From the IMG/VR virus record IMGVR_UViG_2563366858_000008: a stretch of DNA of 39,834 nt, one strand, 5' to 3'. The stretch comes from a virus (Duplodnaviria; Heunggongvirae; Uroviricota; Caudoviricetes). The position numbers and the translations under genes were made by a program. Below, in pieces: positions 7,445 to 34,656 of the stretch. The notes below the pieces were generated by a model that made no database searches, was not told the DNA's origin, and saw only the letters and a list, made by a program, of their open reading frames with translations. Position 1 is the first letter of the stretch, and the number at the start of each line of letters is the position of its first letter.

Positions 7445-7600
7445 GTTAAATCTCCAGATAGTCGCAGCACCCGTTGCGCCGCATATCTGGTTATTCTATT
7501 ACCTGAAAAACCATATATGGATGGAAAGAGTGTTAATGTGAGCAGATATTACCTTTCAGGTGATTCGCAAAACGTGCTGGATAGCAAACAAATTATCTGC

Positions 7601-7620
7601 TACTGTATAAATATACAGTT
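7601..7620 (+). promoter_or_regulatory. LexA (SOS) box
   Basis: TACTGTATAAATATACAGTT matches CTGT-(A/T)8-ACAG; lies 20 bp upstream of the moron start codon. Confidence 0.75.
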
Positions 7621-7639
7621 ATTGCATGGAGAAGATAAG

Positions 7640-7897
7640 ATGCAGCAGTATCACTATCCACTGAAAGAGGGATTTACCGAAAGGATTCACACGCCGGGAG
7701 GCGTCAGGTCACTGGTGGAAGGATCGCACTTGATGAAATTACTCCGGGATCTCGATAAGGATGGATTTAATGTCGATGGCCCACTTGCCGAACTGACTGC
7801 ACTGATTAACTACGTCACCAGCTCACAGATGTCTATGCAGGATCTGCAAACACATCTCGACTATTGTGCCGAACAATTACGAAAACAAACCCGGTAA
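7640..7897 (+). CDS. Small SOS-regulated moron protein, unknown function (candidate antirepressor)
   Basis: GGAGAAG RBS 5 nt before ATG 7640; 85 aa; the track's longer ORF from 7517 would contain the LexA box. Confidence 0.6.
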   Translation: MQQYHYPLKEGFTERIHTPGGVRSLVEGSHLMKLLRDLDKDGFNVDGPLAELTALINYVTSSQMSMQDLQTHLDYCAEQLRKQTR

Positions 7898-7921: not shown

Positions 7922-7933
7922 GTGACATGTCAC
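7922..7933. repeat. 12-bp perfect palindrome GTGACATGTCAC, copy 1
   Basis: Between lipoprotein stop (7937) and terminator hairpin. Confidence 0.8.
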
Positions 7934-7936
7934 GAC

Positions 7937-8350
7937 TTATAAAGATGACTGATATTTTACAACTCTGTTCATGGCATCTTTTTTCACCGAGCTGATATCA
8001 GTTCTTATTTTGGCTTCGTCATTACTGTTTATCATGCTATTAACTTTTTGCACAGACATGCCGTTTCTTTCAGCCATTGCACATACAGCAGCATCGTATG
8101 AAGAACTCGCTGCGATGGATATAACCTTGTTACACTCAAACACAGCACCTTCAGCAATATCAGATGCCGATGATGCTGACTTGGTATAAGTCTTGACGTA
8201 GTGATCAATACAACTATCCTTCGCCGTCTTGGCAAGAGAAAAATCCATTTTAACCTTGTCGCAATATGCCTTATCAACACCGTCATAAACATCATAGGAT
8301 GTCGAGCAAGCGGATATCAAAAATACCGATAACAGCAATAATTCCTTCAT
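7937..8350 (-). CDS. Lipoprotein moron (possible superinfection exclusion)
   Basis: Signal peptide with lipobox ISAC; 137 aa; AT-rich; between ejection-protein genes and tailspike. Confidence 0.6.
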   Translation of the reverse strand: MKELLLLSVFLISACSTSYDVYDGVDKAYCDKVKMDFSLAKTAKDSCIDHYVKTYTKSASSASDIAEGAVFECNKVISIAASSSYDAAVCAMAERNGMSVQKVNSMINSNDEAKIRTDISSVKKDAMNRVVKYQSSL

Positions 8351-12642: not shown

Positions 12643-15152
12643 TGCGGAATATCTCCGGAGAATCTCTGACGCTTCTGTGTCAGATTAAGAACAACGGGAG
12701 AACCATCATCTTTCAGCAGATAACCAGTACCAAGTTTCACCAGGTACTGACTATCGCCGTAACTTTGCAAACCATACTGACCAGGCGGTGTTTTTATCCC
12801 GGAGCCGACAACTTGTTCATTCCAAGCCTGATTAACCTGCTTATCGAATTGCTCTGCAGACATTCCCCACGGCAAAAGGACATTCCCCATTCCGTTATAG
12901 TCATGCACGCCACCTGTAGCTACGTTAACAGCCTGTTTCCAGACATCATTGTCAATTTCGCCTGATACCACGCCTTTTTTCGCCATCACACCAGCGTAAT
13001 AATCCTTTGCGATCTCGTATGCCATTGATGCCCCCTGAGCGTCACCAGCAAATGCATCCTTCACCATGTCAGAAAACTCAAGGCGAAGATCAGCATCTTT
13101 AGGCATCGGAATACCTTTCGCATCATCAGTACCTTTACGAGCCGCCGCGCCAGCAAGAATTGTCTGCGCAGCGGTTTCAGGAGACACGGAAACATCCGGA
13201 TTAAACCAGTTTTTTTCTGCCAAAATACCACCAGGCTTATCCATCAGTATCCCGGCAACGGCAGCAGATGGAGCGTTGGCACTGATCTGCTGTAGTGCTG
13301 ACATATACACCTGCCCACCACCAGTGCTCTGCCTGATGGTATCGAGATATGCTGCCTGTTGGGAAACTGGAGCATCACGAAAGAAAACACCTATCTGATT
13401 GGCCTCGTCTTTGGAAAAGAACGTCAGTGGAGTGCCATATGACTTAGCAAGGTCACTGACCTGAGCGGCACGCAAGGCAACGCTCTGTCCAAAGTTATCC
13501 TTATTGCTCATGTCGATAGGCTTTGCCTGTCCGGAGGCAAGAGAGAACTGCACAGGATCCGACTGCCGCTGCTTTATCACCTGATTTGCAGCCGAAACAA
13601 CGTTGTCATAAAGAGCTGCGCGTGCCGCATAGCCCTCCCCTGTATCACCAGTATCCGGGCGTAATTGCTCAACATATGCTGTAATGCTGCTTGTCGGCAT
13701 GTTGCGGAAAGAGCCTATATACTGTCCGGCGATCTGCGTATTTCTGAACTCGGTATATCGCAGGTTTCCTTCTCTGACGCCATAAGCTGCAATAAAATCA
13801 GCCTCACCAGGTGGATTAGGAAATTCAACGCCACGCATATACGCAGCCGTCGCATCGCGAACCTGGCTGTCAATCATCGTTTTATATTCAGCCTGCTGCT
13901 GCCGACGCAGTTGATCCGCCTGTCGCATAAAACTTGCCTGCGCCTCAGGAGATGCCGCATCGAATGCTGCATTACCGGTATAGCGTTTGGTGTTGGTTGG
14001 AATTGTTGATAAACCAAGTGCTGCACTGACACCAGCAGTTAACTGCTGATCACTGTATGGCTGGCTACCGTTCTCATGATGGATAATGGCTGCACAAAGC
14101 GCCTTCAGGGTATCAGGATTAGATGCATCGAGAGGCTCATCAGCAGAAACGCCAAGTTGTTCGCACACTGCTTTGATATACGACATAGTGTCATTTTTAT
14201 CAGTAGGCGGTGCCCAGCGATTAATTATCTCGCTGACGGTATCAATACCCTGCCTCTGATACGACATCAGGTTCCGCCCTAATGCACGAATCCCGTGTTC
14301 AGGTGTTTCGAATTTAGCAAATCGACCATCATCACCGGTCTGGCCTACCCACGGATTGGTTTTGCTGTATTCGAGATTTCCTGGGTTATTGTTGCGTATG
14401 CCACGGGCACGCTCGGAAGAATCACTATCTGCTACAGCACGGCGAGCTCCAGCAGCAGTATCACTTAACTCGCCATTACTTTGGATGAATGCGGTCGCAT
14501 TGTTTGCCGACCACTGGGACAATGCTGCATCAGCAACCTTCTCTTTAAACTCGATTTTCTTGGCCTGGATTTGCTCGTCGCTCCAGCCATGCGCAATGCC
14601 GTAATCCTCAATTTGCTGGAAAGTTTGCTTATTAGCCAATACGTATGCGGCGTTGTCGCCATACAATGCTGAGGCATTTTTACCATTGTTCAGCAGCGTC
14701 GCCTGAAACTGGCCTTCTTCGTAGGCATTTATTTGCCCTATCTCGTGCCGCCCGGCCTGCGTAGTGAACTGAATGCGCTGCTGCTGCGCCTGCTGCATGA
14801 AAGCATTACGAGCCTGTTCATCCGGCAGCGACATAGCCAGTTGCTCGACCTGGGCATCAAACTGCTGCGTATACTCCTGACCTTTTCCAATAGCATTTTT
14901 CCCTTTCAGGTTAAGCAAACCTGTTTCAGGGTTATTCAACAGATCGCTGCTTATCTGGCTTAAGCTAAGAGAAGCATCCTGAGCCATAGCAACATTCGCA
15001 CGCTGTTTTGCCTGCGCAATAATACCTGCATATTGCTCTGCAACATCGCCAAGTACATCACCGACATTTGGAGTCTGAAACGATGAGAATCCCTGAGTCG
15101 AAATCCCTCTGCTCTGAACCTGACGGCCCGATGTTGTTGGTACAACTGGCAT
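12639..15152 (-). CDS. Large internal virion (core) protein
   Basis: 837 aa; contains segment RGIRNNNPGNLEY of unknown function. Confidence 0.5.
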   Translation of the reverse strand: MPVVPTTSGRQVQSRGISTQGFSSFQTPNVGDVLGDVAEQYAGIIAQAKQRANVAMAQDASLSLSQISSDLLNNPETGLLNLKGKNAIGKGQEYTQQFDAQVEQLAMSLPDEQARNAFMQQAQQQRIQFTTQAGRHEIGQINAYEEGQFQATLLNNGKNASALYGDNAAYVLANKQTFQQIEDYGIAHGWSDEQIQAKKIEFKEKVADAALSQWSANNATAFIQSNGELSDTAAGARRAVADSDSSERARGIRNNNPGNLEYSKTNPWVGQTGDDGRFAKFETPEHGIRALGRNLMSYQRQGIDTVSEIINRWAPPTDKNDTMSYIKAVCEQLGVSADEPLDASNPDTLKALCAAIIHHENGSQPYSDQQLTAGVSAALGLSTIPTNTKRYTGNAAFDAASPEAQASFMRQADQLRRQQQAEYKTMIDSQVRDATAAYMRGVEFPNPPGEADFIAAYGVREGNLRYTEFRNTQIAGQYIGSFRNMPTSSITAYVEQLRPDTGDTGEGYAARAALYDNVVSAANQVIKQRQSDPVQFSLASGQAKPIDMSNKDNFGQSVALRAAQVSDLAKSYGTPLTFFSKDEANQIGVFFRDAPVSQQAAYLDTIRQSTGGGQVYMSALQQISANAPSAAVAGILMDKPGGILAEKNWFNPDVSVSPETAAQTILAGAAARKGTDDAKGIPMPKDADLRLEFSDMVKDAFAGDAQGASMAYEIAKDYYAGVMAKKGVVSGEIDNDVWKQAVNVATGGVHDYNGMGNVLLPWGMSAEQFDKQVNQAWNEQVVGSGIKTPPGQYGLQSYGDSQYLVKLGTGYLLKDDGSPVVLNLTQKRQRFSGDIPQ

Positions 15153-22151: not shown

Positions 22152-22448
22152 TCACTCCTGTTCACTGGCCTCTTTGGCCATCTTCAAATACTGTTCAGGG
22201 CAATGCGCCATAACGCGCTGAAACAGTTCCAGCGCCAGATTGCGTTGCCCCTCATTAAATGCCATAGCCATAGCGTCCATCGGTGAGATAGCAGAAAACA
22301 CACGGCCTTTCTCCAGCACCGACCAGACAACGCGACGCCCCTGTTCACTGCTCATGACAAAGCGAATGTCATCAATTTCACGCTGTGCCATGTCACGTTG
22401 CTTACGGGCGTTTTCTTCTTTCAGTTGATCGTCTTCGTAATCTGTCAT
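22152..22448 (-). CDS. Small head-assembly protein
   Basis: 98 aa; ATGA overlap with portal stop. Confidence 0.5.
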   Translation of the reverse strand: MTDYEDDQLKEENARKQRDMAQREIDDIRFVMSSEQGRRVVWSVLEKGRVFSAISPMDAMAMAFNEGQRNLALELFQRVMAHCPEQYLKMAKEASEQE

Positions 22449-24124
22449 TGTGATTGCCCACCCTGACCACTAACTGCATTCGCCATAGCTGACAAAACAC
22501 TCGGATCCGAAGTTTTAGCTTCGCTTAGCGTCTTGGCACCCTGTGCCGCCGCCATCCCCATCGCCATCATTTGTTGCTGCTGTTGCTGCTGTGCCCGTTG
22601 CTGGCGAGCCTGCTCAACCTGTTCCTGCGGAACAATGACGGTTGGAGACACTCCAGACATATCAGCGAATGCATCGATTGCCTGATCAACGTTGAGTTTG
22701 TCGAGAGCTTCTGGTTTCGCTTGCGCAAGTTGACCAATGAAGTTGACCGTAGACGCCAGACTGGACAGGCCGATAGACTTCTGCGCCTGAGCCATGACGG
22801 AAATGTATTCGACCTTCAGGGGCATACCTTCCATCGCGTCAGGCGGGGGCGGCAGCATGTTTTTACGCACCATCATCGAGAAAGCGCGGTCAATGAGAGG
22901 ATTAAGACATTCGTCGTTCAGACGCTCCAGAACCGGCCCCAACATCAGAAGTTTTTCTTCTTTCATTTCGATCACCGCTTCAACAGGCATCGAACGGGTA
23001 TTGATGTTCTGCAACATCATGAACAGATCGACAAAGTAGGCACTGTTAATGATTTGACGAGTGTCCTGAATGTCTGCCACCAGATCTGCTGTACTGGGGT
23101 TAACCAGATAAGCAGGCCTGAAACCATCCTGACCAGTAATCTGATCGATATACGTGATGTCGCCAGGAAGAAGGGAGGCGCGCTGATTCTTGAGGGAAGT
23201 CGGAGCAATCATCGGCGGATTGGTGGCTTTATCAATCAACTGCGACTTGCGCTTCTGGAGAAGCTGCAATGCCTTAACAGGTCCAAGCGCCAGCATACCC
23301 GGGCATGATGATCCATAAACATCTTCGCCGTTAACTTCCCAGCGCGGAGCCATAATTGGAAACTCATCGAATCCTGACTCACGCAACAACTTGTCGTTAT
23401 CACCGCCAACCTCGTAATAAACCGATTTGAATGGCTTGTTCTTGCTATCCAGCTTCGATGTATCGCGGTCAATGTTCGGGTAAACCGAATGCATCACTTC
23501 AATCCACTTCTCGTAGGTGCCGCTTTCCCACATGCTTTTTACGGATTCGCTGACGTTATTTAGCCCGAACTCCTGAACAAGCTGACGAACAGTCATAGAG
23601 AACTTGCGAAAACAGGTGTCCACACTGCCACGAGGTGAGTTAGCCAGGTAGTAACTGCCTATAGGGAATGGCATTGTGCGAATGATGTCCTCGTCATCCT
23701 CCAGCACCGCCATTGCACCAGTGCTGTATGTGCCGAGGCTTCCGTATAACTGCGGCAGCGACTGATAGAGATTCGACTTATTGAACATATCGTTCATGCG
23801 GTTCTGCACCGCCTCAAGCCACAACTTAACAGGGCCATAATCCATCATTTCAGGATCTGGCGTAGCCAGGCGAAACCACGGACGCGCGGGGCTTGTGATG
23901 CCTGACATCATGCCGCTGGCGAGAGTGCGCGCCGCCATAGTCCCGGTCGAATCAATAATGCGTGTATTCCGTCGATCGTTACGGTTGACCTCAGAAGTCA
24001 GAAAGCGGGAACCACGCGGGTTGATGTAATCACTCAACTCGCGCCAGTGCGGCTCGAACGACTGACGCTCGCTTTCAAGTTGTGCGAACTGTTTGTTCAA
24101 TCGCTCTTTAGTTGTTTCCGCCAT
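22445..24124 (-). CDS. Portal protein, podovirus head-to-tail connector type
   Basis: 559 aa; Gln-rich C-terminal tail (QQQQQQQMMAMGMAAAQ) as in T7 gp8-type connectors. Confidence 0.85.
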   Translation of the reverse strand: MAETTKERLNKQFAQLESERQSFEPHWRELSDYINPRGSRFLTSEVNRNDRRNTRIIDSTGTMAARTLASGMMSGITSPARPWFRLATPDPEMMDYGPVKLWLEAVQNRMNDMFNKSNLYQSLPQLYGSLGTYSTGAMAVLEDDEDIIRTMPFPIGSYYLANSPRGSVDTCFRKFSMTVRQLVQEFGLNNVSESVKSMWESGTYEKWIEVMHSVYPNIDRDTSKLDSKNKPFKSVYYEVGGDNDKLLRESGFDEFPIMAPRWEVNGEDVYGSSCPGMLALGPVKALQLLQKRKSQLIDKATNPPMIAPTSLKNQRASLLPGDITYIDQITGQDGFRPAYLVNPSTADLVADIQDTRQIINSAYFVDLFMMLQNINTRSMPVEAVIEMKEEKLLMLGPVLERLNDECLNPLIDRAFSMMVRKNMLPPPPDAMEGMPLKVEYISVMAQAQKSIGLSSLASTVNFIGQLAQAKPEALDKLNVDQAIDAFADMSGVSPTVIVPQEQVEQARQQRAQQQQQQQMMAMGMAAAQGAKTLSEAKTSDPSVLSAMANAVSGQGGQSQ

Positions 24125-24138
24125 TTCAATGACTCCGG

Positions 24139-24345
24139 TTACTGACCAAGCAGCGTTTTACCGCTGGCATTAGCGGTTGATGTGTCGCCCTGAGAACCGG
24201 TAAGCAGCGTAGAACTACGACCAGCAGCAGCGCGACGGCGACGTGTTTCTTCGTCGCGGGCATCAACAACGGCGGCATCCTGCTCCTGTGGTGCTGCCTG
24301 AACTTCTGGTGTTGCAGGCACTGATGGTGAGCTACCCATGCACAT
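24139..24345 (-). CDS. Small protein upstream of portal
   Basis: GGAG RBS 9 nt upstream of ATG; 68 aa, Ala/Arg-rich. Confidence 0.45.
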   Translation of the reverse strand: MCMGSSPSVPATPEVQAAPQEQDAAVVDARDEETRRRRAAAGRSSTLLTGSQGDTSTANASGKTLLGQ

Positions 24346-24413
24346 ATCAATGACTCCGTACGCAATTAAATTATTACCAATTTAACCACATATGATTTAT
24401 TTATCGTAGATAG

Positions 24414-24419
24414 TTGACA
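24414..24419 (+). promoter_or_regulatory. TTGACA -35-like hexamer upstream of the tRNA; -10 unclear
   Basis: Consensus -35 located 16 bp before the operator-like repeat at 24436. Confidence 0.35.
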
Positions 24420-24435
24420 TTTAACGCACAAATTA

Positions 24436-24450
24436 TTACCTTTAAGGTAA
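24436..24450. promoter_or_regulatory. Operator-like inverted repeat TTACCTTTAAGGTAA (perfect)
   Basis: Perfect TTACC-N5-GGTAA in the noncoding region upstream of the tRNA. Confidence 0.6.
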
Positions 24451-24772
24451 CCAAAGAGTTCATTCCGGTTACTAACCTGACTGGCTTGTCGTTAAATTGA
24501 ACAGGTGGAGTGAGCTTTTATTTTGAGCAGTACGGCGTATGGCACATGCGCCGATAGCGGTCTGGATACGTTTAAGGGGCACCCTCCCTTGCTCGGGCAA
24601 ACGAACCAGGTAGCCGGAATGTGCAAGTCGAGCGGTTTTATTCCGCGCACGGGGATTCACCATCCCGGCGATTCGGTGTGACGCCTCGGAAGAGACGAGG
24701 GTACAACGATGAGAGCATTTATGGAGCCGCGACAAAGTGTGGTGCCTTAACAGGCTAAGTGCTCTCAGCGTT

Positions 24773-24849
24773 GTGGCATTAGCTCAGTTGGACAGAGCAA
24801 CCGCCTTCTAAGCGGTTGGTCGCAGGTTCGAATCCTGCATGCCACGCCA
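24773..24849 (+). tRNA. tRNA-Arg (anticodon UCU), phage-encoded
   Basis: Full cloverleaf: acceptor GTGGCAT/ATGCCAC, D-arm GCTC/GAGC, anticodon stem ACCGC/GCGGT with loop CTTCTAA, T-arm GCAGG-TTCGAAT-CCTGC, discriminator G and encoded CCA. Confidence 0.95.
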
Positions 24850-24892
24850 GAATCACGCATAAGGACCGTGATGCCAGAAGTTCCAGGGGCTT

Positions 24893-24934
24893 GGCGGTGA
24901 TGGTTTCCCTTGAAGGACTATCACCGCCCTTTTT
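24893..24934 (+). terminator. Intrinsic terminator after the tRNA
   Basis: 9-bp stem GGCGGTGAT/ATCACCGCC followed by CTTTTT. Confidence 0.7.
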
Positions 24935-25012
24935 ACAGCAGGACGCCATTGCGATGACTTCATGCTGTAAACCAGTACAGCCACGGAAGGCATAACTCAT
25001 TGCTTCCAGTTC

Positions 25013-25036
25013 GCCCGGTTCGCCGGGCATTTTTTT
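25013..25036 (+). terminator. Terminator-like hairpin in the 5' leader of the 25053 gene
   Basis: GCCCGG-ttcg-CCGGGC followed by ATTTTTTT; RBS AAGGTGAG directly after. Confidence 0.6.
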
Positions 25037-25052
25037 AAGGTGAGATTAGACT

Positions 25053-25424
25053 ATGAGTGACAAAGACATTGAATCTGAAATTCAGGCTAAAGGTTTAGCC
25101 GCGCCGCGCGTTACGCCAGACCATATCGAGAGCATTATTGCTCAGGAGGCATATTTCACAGCAGAAGATGGTGTCTTTGGCGTAGCCATAAAAGCGAAAC
25201 ATACTGGCGGAGAGGTAAACTACCAGCCGCACGAATCACTTTCTCTGCTGACGTTCTGCGTTCTGGTGCTGCGCAACGGCTTCACCGTCACCGGAGAGAG
25301 CGCCTGTGCAAGCCCGGAAAACTTTGATGCGGAAATTGGTCGGAAGATTGCCCGGCAGAATGCTGTAAACAAAATCTGGATGCTTGAAGGTTACTTGCTG
25401 AAGCAGAAGTTAAGCGAGCAATAA
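25053..25424 (+). CDS. Moron protein of unknown function, co-located with the tRNA
   Basis: AAGGTGAG RBS; 123 aa; opposite strand to flanking terminase and portal genes. Confidence 0.65.
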   Translation: MSDKDIESEIQAKGLAAPRVTPDHIESIIAQEAYFTAEDGVFGVAIKAKHTGGEVNYQPHESLSLLTFCVLVLRNGFTVTGESACASPENFDAEIGRKIARQNAVNKIWMLEGYLLKQKLSEQ

Positions 25425-25428
25425 CACC

Positions 25429-25440
25429 GTGACATGTCAC
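25429..25440. repeat. 12-bp perfect palindrome GTGACATGTCAC, copy 2
   Basis: 4 bp after the stop of the 25053 gene, immediately before a terminator. Confidence 0.8.
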
Positions 25441-25444
25441 AAAC

Positions 25445-25471
25445 AGCCAGCCGATGAGCTGGCTTTGTTTT
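25445..25471 (+). terminator. Intrinsic terminator
   Basis: AGCCAGC-cgatga-GCTGGCT followed by TTGTTTTAT. Confidence 0.7.
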
Positions 25472-25514
25472 ATCCTCACCAGAGGATATCTCCGTCATTA
25501 TCCCCGCTAACGGA

Positions 25515-26990
25515 TTAAGCATAGGGATCGTAATCTATAATGGCCTTGCCTTGCTGGTTCTGCTGCCCGGGAATTCGCAGACGCTTAGACACAGGGAACG
25601 CAAACGTCAGCAGTAGCGCATCGCCTTTACCCGGCGAACGCCCAAGCCGCTCCTTGATATCTTCCTTCGGTTCGATAACGATTTTACCGTCCACTCGAAC
25701 TTTGTACTCTGCCGCCGACAGGTCGTCCGCTGTTTCCTGGTCATCCAGCATGCCGCCCAGCCTCAGCCATGTCTTGCATGAGTTGAACATCTCCCCACGC
25801 TTGTTGAGCATCTGCGGGTCAGTAGACGCGCCACCGAACGGAACAAGTTGCCATGTGCGCCCCCAACCGTCACCGATTGACTTCAGCCCGGTACCGTAAC
25901 CGAAGTCGATGAACACCGCGTCAGCCTGATACTGGTCTTCAAAGTCAGCGATACGCTTTGCCATAATCAGATCGTCAGTGGTCTTGTTGCCGGTCCACAG
26001 CACCTTACTGTGCAGCCCCTGCCGCAGGTATATCACCGCGTCATCAACACCGGAGTATGCAGGGTCAACGCCGATTATCACCGGAGCATGTGCCACCTGC
26101 GCAGCAGTTACCACCCGTTTCATTGCCTCGTCAGTAAGACCGGTAGGGATAAACTGCAATTCAGATGCATCCGGGAATATGCCGCGCACACGGATTTTAA
26201 CGAAGTCGCTGTCTTCCCCGTAGTCATCAACCCATTTCTGCAACTGCTGTTTGTTAGTGCCTTCCACCGTCCGGCTGTCAATCTGCGCAGTTTTCCAGCG
26301 GTGTTTATATTTGCGGAAACATTCGCGGAAACGCCCGGTGTTACGTGTAGGGTTTCCGAATGCCACCCAGATAATCTCAGTGTCTTCGTCCGTCAGCGCC
26401 CCCTCAGCAACTTCCCACACCAGATCCGCAATGTTCGACGCTTCATCGAATACCACGATGATGCGTTTGCGCTCGTTGTGTAGTCCGGCGAATGCCTCAG
26501 TGTTGTGCTCAGACCAGGGTATTGCGTCAGCCCGCCACCGCTTGTCGTGCCCTGGGTCATTGCTGTACATCGCGGTAGCGGTACAGGTAAACCAGTCTTT
26601 CGTGATAGCAAGGTTCGACCACTTGATAATTTCCGGCCAGGTCTTCGTTCGTAGCTGGTTGTCGGTGTTGGCGGTCACCACGACCTTACAATCCTCGCAA
26701 GTGGACATGCCCCAGTTGATCAGCATTGAGATAAATGCGGATTTACCAATACCGTGACCAGAAGCGCGTGCCAGCATAAGCGGCTGATAGCGCGTCTCCG
26801 GATTCTGCAGGTGATCACGTATCTCTCGGAACGCATCAGCCTGCCACTGACGTGGGCCGGTAGCATGTGCCAGTTCAGTCCCCTCTTCCCCCCACGGGAA
26901 CGCATAGAGGGCATAGCCAAGCGGATCGTGAGTGAACCCTGCAATATCCTCGATCAACTGCTCTTCAGGAGATAACGCTGTATCTGTCAC
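25515..26990 (-). CDS. Terminase large subunit
   Basis: 491 aa; N-terminal ATPase region with P-loop-like GHGIGKS and C-terminal nuclease-like region; ATGA overlap with small subunit. Confidence 0.9.
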   Translation of the reverse strand: MTDTALSPEEQLIEDIAGFTHDPLGYALYAFPWGEEGTELAHATGPRQWQADAFREIRDHLQNPETRYQPLMLARASGHGIGKSAFISMLINWGMSTCEDCKVVVTANTDNQLRTKTWPEIIKWSNLAITKDWFTCTATAMYSNDPGHDKRWRADAIPWSEHNTEAFAGLHNERKRIIVVFDEASNIADLVWEVAEGALTDEDTEIIWVAFGNPTRNTGRFRECFRKYKHRWKTAQIDSRTVEGTNKQQLQKWVDDYGEDSDFVKIRVRGIFPDASELQFIPTGLTDEAMKRVVTAAQVAHAPVIIGVDPAYSGVDDAVIYLRQGLHSKVLWTGNKTTDDLIMAKRIADFEDQYQADAVFIDFGYGTGLKSIGDGWGRTWQLVPFGGASTDPQMLNKRGEMFNSCKTWLRLGGMLDDQETADDLSAAEYKVRVDGKIVIEPKEDIKERLGRSPGKGDALLLTFAFPVSKRLRIPGQQNQQGKAIIDYDPYA

Positions 26991-27583
26991 TGATTGCCAT
27001 CCTGACGTTCTTTCAGTCTCTTCCTGGCTGCCGCTATGCGATCAGCAATTGTCACATTCACATTAACATCCAGGCGTTCTTTGAACGCGTTGACATCAAC
27101 ATGCTTACCAATCAGCTCAAGGTTCTTCACCTTGTCAGGCCATTTAATTTTTTTGAGGATTGTCTCTATCGAATCCTCGTTCATGTTCATGATGGTCGAT
27201 GACAGATCAAAGCCACTAAGCGTAGTGCGCCAGATTTTCGGCCACTCACGGATTGGTTTAAGGCTCCCATCGTCGTTGAGGATATCGATCACGTCCATCT
27301 GGTCGATCTCCACCAGGCGCATGAGAACGTAATCAGCACTGACGCGCATTCGTTTGTTGCGCTCCTCCATCAACTCGGCAATCCGTTTTTGAATGCGTAC
27401 ATCGCGCATCATGACACTGGCTTTAACTGCCGCTGTATTTGGGGAGAACCCTGCGTTAATCGCTGCCTGAGTCTGGTTTTCAGGCGTTTTGATGTATGAC
27501 TGGCAATAAGCCTCCTGCATTGCTGTGAGCGGCTTAAATTGCGTTGATTTGCGTTTATAGGTTTTAGGTTCAGCAGGCATCAT
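26987..27583 (-). CDS. Terminase small subunit
   Basis: Start MMPAEPK at ATG 27583 (the track's N-terminal extension to 27661 crosses a terminator and operator repeats); motif QEAYCQSYIKT...AAINAGFS typical of small subunits. Confidence 0.75.
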   Translation of the reverse strand: MMPAEPKTYKRKSTQFKPLTAMQEAYCQSYIKTPENQTQAAINAGFSPNTAAVKASVMMRDVRIQKRIAELMEERNKRMRVSADYVLMRLVEIDQMDVIDILNDDGSLKPIREWPKIWRTTLSGFDLSSTIMNMNEDSIETILKKIKWPDKVKNLELIGKHVDVNAFKERLDVNVNVTIADRIAAARKRLKERQDGNQ

Positions 27584-27597
27584 AACCACCGTGGTAA
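27583..27597. promoter_or_regulatory. Operator-like repeat TAACCACCGTGGTAA (1 mismatch), overlapping terS start
   Basis: Adjacent to the perfect copy at 27601; 18 bp centre-to-centre. Confidence 0.45.
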
Positions 27598-27600
27598 TAG

Positions 27601-27615
27601 TTACCGTTGTGGTAA
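27601..27615. promoter_or_regulatory. Operator-like inverted repeat TTACCGTTGTGGTAA (perfect)
   Basis: Between the late-leader terminator and the terS start codon. Confidence 0.6.
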
Positions 27616-27622
27616 TAGTACC

Positions 27623-27652
27623 ATGCAAAATAAAGCCGCCATAGTTGGCGGC
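27623..27652 (-). terminator. Intrinsic terminator immediately upstream of the terminase genes (tR'-like)
   Basis: GCCGCC-aactat-GGCGGC followed by TTTATTTTG on the minus strand. Confidence 0.65.
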
Positions 27653-27657
27653 AGTAT

Positions 27658-27870
27658 TCAAAGTCCATCAAATTCATCGTAAAAACTCTCGTCAAGATAC
27701 CCTTCCCATTTACCGCGAATGAAAATTACATCCTCGCCGCAAGGGTGCTGACTGTCGATAACTATATCCCTCCTGGCGCAACCATACTTATGCATGAGAA
27801 ATTTAACCTCTTTCGGAAAATTTGCTGAGTTATCTCTCATATCTTCAAGGTCGTAGCGTATTTTTGGCAT
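27658..27870 (-). CDS. Small protein of unknown function
   Basis: Start MPKIRYD at ATG 27870 with GAAGGTG RBS; 70 aa; the track start at 27891 is a GTG inside the palindrome. Confidence 0.5.
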   Translation of the reverse strand: MPKIRYDLEDMRDNSANFPKEVKFLMHKYGCARRDIVIDSQHPCGEDVIFIRGKWEGYLDESFYDEFDGL

Positions 27871-27879
27871 AACACCTTC

Positions 27880-27891
27880 GTGACATGTCAC
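27880..27891. repeat. 12-bp perfect palindrome GTGACATGTCAC, copy 3
   Basis: Contains the TGA stop of the 27888..28226 gene and abuts the RBS of the 27658..27870 gene. Confidence 0.8.
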
Positions 27892-28226
27892 ACTATTAAT
27901 TTTGTTTCATGCCAGCCTTTAGTCACCCAGCATTGCGAGTCACCATTGCACGGGCATGAATTAACTGGAACTCTCTCGCCGCACTTACCGCAACGTTTTC
28001 TGCTGATCGATTTTATACGCCCGCGCACGCGTGCATCATCCTGGCGGATCAGTAACGCTATATACTCACCAAATTCGTAAGGCACACGCCCGGGGCGACG
28101 CGTGGCGCAGTTCCGCTCCAGCATTTCAATTTCCTGAGCATCAAGCACAATCTCCAGCTTACGTACACCGGATGCAGCTTGTCTGGCTCTCTGAGCGGCT
28201 TTGCGCTCTGCTGCTGATTTAGCCAT
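27888..28226 (-). CDS. Zinc-ribbon protein (candidate late-gene regulator)
   Basis: Start MAKSAAERK at ATG 28226 (in-frame ATG 28232 and GTG 28238 upstream); C-terminal CGKCG...CPCNG four-Cys motif; last regulatory-sized gene before the late-operon terminator. Confidence 0.5.
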   Translation of the reverse strand: MAKSAAERKAAQRARQAASGVRKLEIVLDAQEIEMLERNCATRRPGRVPYEFGEYIALLIRQDDARVRGRIKSISRKRCGKCGERVPVNSCPCNGDSQCWVTKGWHETKLIV

Positions 28227-31428: not shown

Positions 31429-31431
31429 GAT

Positions 31432-31446
31432 TTACCTCTAAGGTAA
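31432..31446. promoter_or_regulatory. Operator-like inverted repeat TTACCTCTAAGGTAA (perfect)
   Basis: Overlaps RBS/leader of the 31084..31428 gene. Confidence 0.6.
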
Positions 31447-31474
31447 TTAAAAACCACATAAGACACGAAATCAA
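31446..31474 (-). promoter_or_regulatory. Candidate sigma70 promoter for the nin-like operon
   Basis: Minus strand TTGATT, 17-bp spacer, TTTAAT; flanked by operator-like repeats at 31432 and 31494. Confidence 0.4.
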
Positions 31475-31493
31475 TAGAGCTTAGAATATTTTA

Positions 31494-31508
31494 TTACCCG
31501 ACAGGTAA
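31494..31508. promoter_or_regulatory. Operator-like inverted repeat TTACCCGACAGGTAA (perfect)
   Basis: Just downstream (minus strand) of the terminator-like hairpin after the P-like gene. Confidence 0.6.
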
Positions 31509-31520
31509 TTGTTGAGACGT

Positions 31521-34550: not shown

Positions 34551-34560
34551 GCCAGCAAGA

Positions 34561-34575
34561 TTACCTTATGGGTAA
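34561..34575. promoter_or_regulatory. Operator site TTACCTTATGGGTAA (perfect)
   Basis: Upstream flank of the early-left promoter. Confidence 0.65.
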
Positions 34576-34594
34576 TTTTTTTAACTCATATCTA

Positions 34595-34622
34595 TTGACA
34601 TCAAACCAGATACGCATAATCA
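34595..34622 (+). promoter_or_regulatory. Early-left promoter (PL-like)
   Basis: TTGACA, 16-bp spacer, TAATCA; bracketed by operator sites at 34561 and 34623. Confidence 0.55.
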
Positions 34623-34637
34623 TTACCTCAACGGTAA
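34623..34637. promoter_or_regulatory. Operator site TTACCTCAACGGTAA (perfect)
   Basis: Immediately after the -10; would cover the transcription start. Confidence 0.65.
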
Positions 34638-34656
34638 CAGACCGAGGTAACAAATT

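Follow-up and report, generated by a model that had tools for sequence, protein, structure and literature searches.

Three exact copies of a perfect 12-bp palindrome occur in the window, by which we mean the whole stretch of DNA analysed here (39,834 nucleotides), and this three-copy palindrome is a real and strongly conserved feature. Judging from comparisons of sequence across phages, the explanation that we find most likely is a conserved regulator–operator pair with an unusual placement and with half-sites like those of matS, the site of MatP. We propose, at a probability of roughly 0.55, that the palindrome is the operator of a 112-aa protein of the phrog_536 type and acts as a transcription-unit boundary element. 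Taken separately, the first part of this proposal, that the motif is the binding site of the phrog_536 protein, is probable, and the second, that its role lies in marking a boundary or reinforcing termination, is a tentative suggestion.

The palindrome and its three sites

The window is a temperate podophage of the phiV10/epsilon15 type (genus Uetakevirus), and its stretch from 24100 to 27000 is 98% identical to phage phiV10. Late genes lie on the minus strand. A plus-strand cassette sits between the large terminase gene (terL, 25515–26990, minus strand), with which it is convergent, and the portal operon on its other side (portal, PF12236, 22445–24124, minus strand); the first-pass annotation had described a tRNA cassette between terminase and portal genes, and that description holds. 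The cassette starts with tRNA-Arg(TCT) at its head (24773–24849, plus strand; the sole match in an Rfam search of the window) and continues through a long hairpin, a strong terminator (T1) with a ribosome-binding site directly after it, a gene of 123 aa and the palindrome to a second terminator (T2). T1 consists of a hairpin at 25013–25028 (GCCCGGTTCGCCGGGC), which covaries in epsilon15, followed by T7; with the ribosome-binding site AAGGTG it forms the left arm of the slot that holds the gene (25013–25052, plus strand), and this arm is kept up to the start codon across cargo variants. The 123-aa cargo gene itself (25053–25424, plus strand) belongs to PF13876, the phage N4 gp49/Sf6 gp66 family, whose function is unknown, and is replaced in close relatives. 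A consensus scan found no plus-strand promoter between 24346 and 25052, and 24 nt separate T1 from the start codon of the cargo, which would thus have to be expressed by read-through or from an unrecognised promoter. PADLOC assigned the cargo proteins to no known defence family and returned a weak coiled-coil match alone.

The palindrome under study, GTGACATGTCAC, occupies 25429–25440 (site B; it has no strand of its own), 4 nt past the TAA stop codon (25422–25424) of the plus-strand accessory gene and directly before T2, so that 25421–25471 reads A-TAA-CACC-GTGACATGTCAC-AAAC-AGCCAGC-CGATGA-GCTGGCT-TTGTTTT. T2 (25441–25471, plus strand), which stands between the convergent cargo and terL genes, has a stem of seven pairs, five of them G-C, at 25445–25464, and then TTTGTTTT; the hairpin and the U-tract that follows it (TTGTTTTATC) make it an intrinsic terminator. 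The region folds at -16.5 kcal/mol with the terminator stem as the centroid structure, and a consensus scan calls a terminator here on the plus strand only, strong in the cargo direction.

The exact 12-mer starts at 7922, 25429 and 27880, against a chance expectation of about 0.002 copies in 39.8 kb by simple arithmetic. Allowing one mismatch gives four matches, where shuffled sequence is expected to give 0.06 and none of 100 shuffles reached four. The fourth match, at 22385, has one mismatch, falls within an open reading frame and has no counterpart in epsilon15, and we treated it as chance. The three exact copies share the motif and one base on each side and nothing more (12–14 bp), and their flanks and hairpins differ.

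Site A (27880–27891, strandless) overlaps the end of the last gene of the early-right operon, which encodes the 112-aa candidate binding protein (27888–28226, minus strand): bases 2–4 of the palindrome, read on the minus strand, are the TGA stop of this phrog_536 gene, and the site lies upstream of terS. Between it and the terminator that closes both the early-right operon and the site A slot (27635–27652, minus strand) lies a 70-aa cargo open reading frame (phrog_1541, 27658–27870, minus strand); that terminator in turn is upstream of the probable true start of terS (ATG at 27583/27580). Site C (7922–7933, strandless) is found where the long late operon ends, 3 nt past the stop of its last gene, a variable late-strand open reading frame of 137 aa (phrog_8691, 7937–8350, minus strand). 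On the minus strand the order is stop, 3 nt, palindrome, a terminator hairpin from 7921 to 7904 and TTAAATTT; it is the same stop, palindrome and hairpin order that the first-pass annotation had recognised in this copy and at site B. From the opposite side, site C is faced by a convergent open reading frame (7517–7897, plus strand) with an anti-repressor-like C-terminus (phrog_450/phrog_1760), in whose place phage Tyrion has an annotated anti-repressor.

Repressor-type operators of the form ATTACC-N5-GGTAAT are annotated in epsilon15 and have matches in the window at 27582–27616, 24435–24451 and 7548–7564, and it seems that every late unit has a promoter region of its own that contains such operators. 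Since these operators mark the late promoter regions, the palindromes belong to unit ends and not to promoters. We considered the immunity repressor as the reader of the palindrome and rejected it, the epsilon15 "repressor" sites being a different palindrome. The literature searched, including a full-text search for the 12-mer, held no description of the palindrome, and the ZX5 paper, which covers the repressor, anti-repressor and integrase, does not include the phrog_536-type protein.

Conserved sites and exchangeable cargo

Phages epsilon15, SPN1S and Tyrion each carry three exact palindromes at sites homologous to A, B and C, and a Klebsiella Uetakevirus also carries three, two of them at the homologous sites A and B; in Kp4865-1 there is an exact copy at site B. 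The terL genes of the epsilon15, SPN1S, Tyrion and Klebsiella relatives are about 78–83% identical to that of the window in nucleotide sequence. Across relatives the palindrome stays constant and the adjoining hairpins change by compensatory substitution and differ in their loops: the stems at the T2 position are CCAGC/GCTGG, CCCGC/GCGGG and GCCCGCG/CGCGGGC, with the structure kept. A comparison of the terminase–portal interval in related phages had been suggested as a check on the palindrome, and in epsilon15, SPN1S, Tyrion and the Klebsiella relative it finds the palindrome at the corresponding edge of the cassette. In a few relatives, to all appearance intact phages, site B is missing or differs by one base.

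We compared 79 intervals from TerL to the portal operon, comprising IMG/VR relatives with TerL at least 99% identical, epsilon15 and the window. Interval lengths lie between 820 and 1986 nt. Starting at terL, the sequences can be aligned across hairpin T2 and the palindrome, up to a point 4 nt past the palindrome on the cargo side. The ending is the same for at least six types of cargo, one of them an empty form that has an eight-codon open reading frame: stop, 4 nt, palindrome and hairpin. At the opposite edge of the slot homology returns at the ribosome-binding site and terminator T1, and with homology breaking at both arms the exchanged unit is almost exactly one open reading frame. One relative (L030) carries two units in tandem, with the palindrome and hairpin after each open reading frame. 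The other two sites also border variable DNA: the palindrome-plus-hairpin island of site C is kept in most of 80 relatives while the open reading frames on either side vary, and the 70-aa open reading frame of site A is missing from epsilon15 and from 42 of the 59 close relatives that could be scored. On this comparative evidence, the palindromes mark the fixed edges of accessory-gene slots.

Like a moron, the site B cargo is found, missing or exchanged for another between the conserved terL gene and portal operon of close relatives, and it ends in an intrinsic terminator. It differs in that the slot has fixed, reusable arms (T1 and the ribosome-binding site on one side, the palindrome and T2 on the other), in that exchange is precise to the open reading frame and in that a tandem array is possible, which makes it more cassette-like. 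The first-pass annotation had suggested that the palindrome marks moron boundaries or a shared termination-associated site. Because homology between cargo variants, of at least six types, breaks at the palindrome, the first idea stands as a description; it fails as a generic mark of morons, since the palindrome is linked to the stop of the phrog_536 gene. The second idea fares similarly. Across 135 distinct contexts, a long open reading frame ends within 12 nt of the palindrome in 117, and a terminator in the same direction follows the palindrome in 60, all of them among the 117; against it, phages related to ZF40 carry intragenic copies with no terminator, and the palindrome is invariant where the hairpins covary.

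A candidate binding protein and the linked sites in other phages

What ties the protein to the site is their co-occurrence across genomes, which we tested from the gene side. In 75 of 77 TerL loci with a full phrog_536 gene an exact palindrome lies on the stop of that gene, and in the other two it has a single mismatch. In the myophage ZF40 the structural genes are unrelated, yet there is a homolog of the protein (gp22, 67% identical) and there are three exact palindromes: one 3 nt past the gp22 stop, one within a YdaT-like gene (a cII analogue) and one within a leftward early gene. The two intragenic copies flank the immunity region and have no terminator nearby. When ZF40 gp22 was used as the query, 46 diverse IMG/VR loci (51–100% identity) were recovered; most have the palindrome on the stop or within 10 nt of it, and in most another one or two copies lie within 10 kb. 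When the YdaT-like genes of eight ZF40-like phages are aligned, there is a single long invariant run, namely the palindrome plus one base, and the third codon positions around it vary. A scan of IMG/VR for the 14-mer, by comparison, returned partial stretches (about 75 contexts), with a homolog in 32 of 120, and some of these matches may be due to chance.

Phage N15 and a second Ravinvirus encode more distant homologs (about 35% protein identity) and carry three copies each of a variant, GTGAC-TG/CA-GTCAC, in which the half-sites are unchanged and the central pair is different. In N15 the variant sites lie at the stop of gene 46, inside repA and at the end of the repA operon, where the site precedes the operon terminator and an anti-repressor operon. 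The site thus changes in the most divergent branch of the protein only, and all three sites of a genome change together, a pattern that would fit a cognate pair of protein and site. Taken at the level of sequence, the same pairing of gene and site is carried by ZF40-like, N15-like and Uetakevirus phages in spite of their unrelated architectures.

The 112-aa protein matches phrog_536 in PHROGs, where it is annotated as a "transcriptional regulator"; it has no Pfam or NCBIfam family, and no Pfam match appears even at E values up to 10. An AlphaFold model built with an alignment of 52 sequences (pLDDT 91.7) has a basic helix at residues 5–19, an extended segment at 22–28, helices at 30–42 and 52–74 and, ahead of a last helix, a zinc knuckle formed around the invariant C79 and C82; the N-terminal helix contains the basic, conserved stretch ERKAAQRARQ. 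Foldseek searches of this model against the PDB and BFVD gave nothing significant except a fragment of the same family. The best structural matches have low scores, include the MatP–matS complex and are of a generic ribbon–helix–helix type, and a ribbon–helix–helix core is likely on the strength of the model. Homology to MatP was considered and rejected (hhalign probability 0.2%, BLASTP E = 12, no match to PF06303 or PF17414). For the C-terminal half, residues 47–107 align with residues 6–66 of TraR at an hhalign probability of 76%, and a profile search against the PDB places TraR and YbiI at E values of about 0.1; the second cysteine pair is not a CxxC and there is no PF01258 match, and we take the TraR-like assignment of this half as a lead. 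The likeness to TraR and DksA lies in a long helix, a CxxC zinc knuckle and a short helix, and the difference is that TraR, which acts in the secondary channel of RNA polymerase, has neither a DNA-binding domain nor a cognate DNA site.

In its predicted fold and in the short palindromic DNA target proposed for it, the protein resembles ribbon–helix–helix repressors such as Arc, Mnt, CopG and the ParD/TacA antitoxins. It differs from them in lacking a Pfam ribbon–helix–helix match and in its additional elements, a basic helix at the N-terminus and a zinc module at the C-terminus, and the palindromes lie at the 3' ends of genes or within genes, not at its own promoter.

Alternative readings, related systems and a proposed mechanism

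The palindrome could instead work as RNA, either as a transcribed hairpin read by a factor (as nut/boxB is by N or Nun, or by an antiterminator of the RAT type) or as a stabiliser of mRNA 3' ends, with the basic N-terminal helix of the protein as an RNA-binding arm. We hold this to be unlikely, although the order of stop, palindrome and terminator follows the direction of transcription at all three sites, the basic ERKAAQRARQ helix is conserved and the intragenic copies of ZF40-like phages lie in the leftward and rightward early operons at roughly the positions of the lambda nut sites. The RNA hairpin of the palindrome itself has 4 bp and -2.7 kcal/mol with a z-score of 0, no better than shuffles, and the palindrome does not fit the definition of a nut/boxB element, a strand-specific RNA hairpin recognised by an arginine-rich peptide. 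The full site is a 14-bp dyad, Y-GTGAC-AT-GTCAC-R, whose -1 position is a pyrimidine in 95–98% of half-sites, including 39 well-separated contexts; the two flanks combine independently and show no Watson–Crick covariation, the commonest combination (C..A) being a mismatch in RNA, and the half-sites never covary, even across very divergent phages. The N15 variant, moreover, has a centre that is not self-complementary and is transcribed both ways, so that two different RNA loops would arise from what is each time the same duplex site. These observations favour duplex DNA read by a symmetric dimer, and within the alignments they show that sequence rather than RNA structure is conserved, under selection at the nucleotide level. 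A further possibility is that the palindrome is a functionless, duplicated piece of a terminator module that hitch-hikes with hairpins, as the terminator that usually adjoins it might suggest. This is extremely improbable and is already contradicted by the comparative alignments: the window copies have 12–14 bp in common but neither flanks nor hairpins, the palindrome stays the same where the hairpins vary, and it is kept in coding regions that have no terminator.

The variable DNA beside all three copies raises the question of whether the palindrome is instead a site of recombination or cleavage, resembling integron attC or a nuclease target, that makes cargo hot spots; breakpoints precise to the open reading frame, a constant 4-nt gap between stop and palindrome for unrelated cargo, and the tandem array with a palindrome after each open reading frame are what it would predict. 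We consider it quite unlikely, as the motif has neither a recombinase nor a nuclease linked to it, the gene that does go with it is modelled as a small DNA-binding protein, and the copies in N15 repA and within genes of ZF40-like phages that look essential do not bound any cargo. Visual inspection of the sequence showed no attC-like core boxes, and the sole recombinase-type genes seen, for a YqaJ-type exonuclease and a RecT annealing protein (PF09588 and PF03837; 35108–37039, plus strand), lie more than 10 kb away, which is not the arrangement of an integron cassette. For homologous exchange, the conserved arms, about 40 bp long, would be enough when combined with RecT and the exonuclease, and we regard these two genes as the probable cargo-swapping machinery; in epsilon15 the corresponding place has an annotated phage integrase. 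Also quite unlikely is a reading in which each of the three late operons has a palindrome as its upstream activator site, and in which these podophages, having no Q, use the linked protein to activate their late genes. Its gene is the last of the early-right operon and directly precedes terS, the usual position of a late regulator; in the late direction each palindrome is upstream of a promoter region with operator-like sites (the three matches given above); the C-terminal half aligns with TraR, which binds RNA polymerase; and a promoter closely follows one of the copies in the Klebsiella relatives and N15. The palindromes nevertheless lie anywhere from about 80 to about 1000 bp from the promoters, with a terminator and whole cargo genes in between, and ZF40 and N15, which have Q-like antiterminators, keep the system at sites that are not promoters. 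Very unlikely, finally, is a role in chromosome organisation rather than transcription, with the sites read by host MatP or the phage protein mimicking MatP on the host Ter region. The spacer of 2 bp rather than 3 means that there is no matS match, the protein has no sequence similarity to MatP or its Pfam families and only a generic ribbon–helix–helix match in structure, and a phage gene so closely linked to the sites speaks for a reader encoded by the phage.

MatP is a ribbon–helix–helix protein that organises the Ter region of Escherichia coli through the site GTGAC-RNY-GTCAC (PMC6907758). A survey of 500 Escherichia and Salmonella prophages reported no true matS motifs in them (PMC3603311), and the phage motif would escape the pattern used in that study. 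The likeness to MatP and matS consists in identical half-sites (GTGAC and GTCAC), in the ribbon–helix–helix dimer that we propose for the phage and in a small number of sites dispersed over a replicon that are not promoter operators. The differences are that the phage spacer is 2 bp, in a site of 12–14 bp, whereas it is 3 bp in the 13-bp matS (GTGACRNYGTCAC), which places the phage site outside the matS definition, and that the phage protein has a zinc module instead of the four-helix bundle and coiled coil of MatP. The resemblance lies in a possible mode of action and not in family membership. With half-sites identical to those of matS, itself a motif otherwise excluded from prophages, the sites pose the question of whether phages use, avoid or imitate the host system that organises the terminus.

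Another point of comparison is the stoperators of cluster A mycobacteriophages, the sites of L5 gp71, which are asymmetric, orientation-dependent, bound by the immunity repressor and present in about 20–30 copies per genome. The role usually given to them is to halt an elongating polymerase and not to regulate a promoter. The phage palindromes share with them a short site repeated in short gaps at the ends of genes and operons of a temperate phage, a resemblance in function only. In contrast to stoperators, there are three sites here and these are symmetric, and the immunity repressor has its own ATTACC-N5-GGTAAT operators, so the palindromes do not belong to the stoperator class.

Under our preferred reading, in which the palindrome is the operator of the phrog_536 protein and a boundary element, the protein would be made from the early-right operon, and a dimer would occupy the three sites, each at a junction of two transcription units beside an intrinsic terminator. 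We infer that the bound dimer would hinder RNA polymerase at the junction and so reinforce the adjoining terminator. At site A this would limit read-through from the early-right operon into terS; at site B it would limit read-through from the tRNA and cargo cassette into terL in the antisense direction; and at site C it would separate the late operon from the convergent anti-repressor-like gene. Cargo the size of an open reading frame would be swapped in the slot, probably through recombination by the phage exonuclease and RecT on short arms. Because the palindrome and hairpin must be kept, they would form a fixed arm of about 40 bp that, together with the arm of T1 and the ribosome-binding site, frames the slot. 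On the sequence evidence, then, the boundary role looks like a consequence of a conserved protein-binding site and not like the primary explanation.

Two considerations weigh against a simple roadblock. A polymerase stalled near the stop codon, upstream of the terminator, is not obviously useful, and the intragenic sites of ZF40-like phages and N15 repA have no adjoining terminator, so that help with termination would not be the whole story. A broader function is possible and could include shut-off of early transcription, bridging of DNA or effects on promoters. Worth entertaining, doubtful as it is, is the wider idea of a system shared by at least three unrelated architectures of enterobacterial temperate phages, in which the three matS-like dyads of each genome are read by a ribbon–helix–helix protein fused to a TraR-like module, possibly one that binds RNA polymerase. 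This protein would act either as a DNA-tethered factor for termination or insulation that partitions the genome and fixes the edges of the slots, or as a miniature organiser in the style of MatP and matS that bridges the sites.

Should the protein bind these sites, a function would follow for a widespread prophage protein so far labelled "hypothetical": phrog_536-type proteins form hundreds of clusters at 90% identity in Escherichia, Salmonella, Klebsiella, Citrobacter and Enterobacter. Such binding would also provide a 14-bp landmark for locating accessory-gene slots in this phage group, as well as a testable regulator whose operators lie at the ends of genes rather than at promoters. Phages of the phiV10 type are used as reporter phages for E. 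coli O157, and the conserved arms on either side of the cargo slot offer natural landing pads for engineering cargo into them.

Short ORFs and larger cargo in the slots

In relatives in which the slots for exchangeable cargo ORFs are 'empty', 8-codon ORFs that are near-identical to each other are retained (loci L004 and L017). At site A, where the 12-bp palindrome GTGAC-AT-GTCAC lies on the stop of the phrog_536 gene, the empty slot encodes MHDEFDGF, with the palindrome on one side and a terminator on the other, as found in 42 of 59 scorable relatives; at site B, the end of the tRNA/cargo cassette, it encodes MKYEFDGF, flanked by terminator T1 and the palindrome. The 70-aa site-A cargo of the window (27658–27870, minus strand) has ...FYDEFDGL as its C-terminal end; in epsilon15, a ...DEFDRF remnant persists but is not translated (L002, 2588–2615). 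These 8-codon ORFs could be scars from the deletion of a single ancestral cargo gene or, alternatively, a leader-peptide-like element.

One relative (L030; 1130–1180 and 1523–1570 of the interval in cargo orientation) carries two tandem cargo ORFs, each repeat unit running from terminator hairpin, T-run and ribosome-binding site through ORF and stop to the palindrome 4 nt further on; these units form a small cassette array within the phage late region. At three other loci (L046, L060 and L070), bigger cargo lies between TerL and the cassette, encoding proteins of 246–310 aa with membrane segments at the N-terminus and long coiled coils. PADLOC gave a weak match to LmuB for one of these proteins, and their genes are possible exclusion or abortive-infection genes. 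The window cassette has a plus-strand hairpin with a 14-bp stem followed by CTTTTT (24893–24928), 44 nt downstream of tRNA-Arg; two terminator-like hairpins stand upstream of its cargo gene, for which no promoter of its own is recognisable.

Palindrome copies in other phages

In Klebsiella-type relatives, a consensus-like promoter directly follows palindrome A and is overlapped by a LexA box, TACTGTTTAAATATACAGTA (12697–12790 in Kp4865-1, L088; also loci L099–L115, L109 and L091), and the cargo in this slot is a predicted SOS-controlled gene. A degenerate fourth copy adjoins the attachment region and overlaps the Rz spanin stop codon in SPN1S (GTGACATGTCAT; L084, 26722) and, with two mismatches, in epsilon15 (L003, 26618); the window has no counterpart.

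The variant GTGAC-TG/CA-GTCAC occurs three times in the linear plasmid-prophage N15 (L216, 28550, 33237 and 39269), at the gene 46 stop, within repA, and in the stretch that separates the repA operon from the promoter of the anti-repressor operon, sites that its record leaves unannotated. In a second Ravinvirus (L089), the positions are 35719, 41078 and 45461.

Repressor-type operators and the terS start

A second palindrome family, ATTACC-N5-GGTAAT, matches sites annotated as epsilon15 repressor operators and recurs in the window at 27582–27616, 24435–24451, 7548–7564, 31431–31509 and 34560–34638. Copies are found both in the immunity region and 5' of every late operon, a placement suggesting separate promoters under repressor control for the individual late units.

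The mechanical call for terS (26987–27661, minus strand; TTG start at 27661) is the same long ORF of 675 nt as in the phiV10 annotation, and it encloses a terminator (27652–27635) and two operator-like sites. The true start is probably the ATG at 27583 or 27580, like that of epsilon15.
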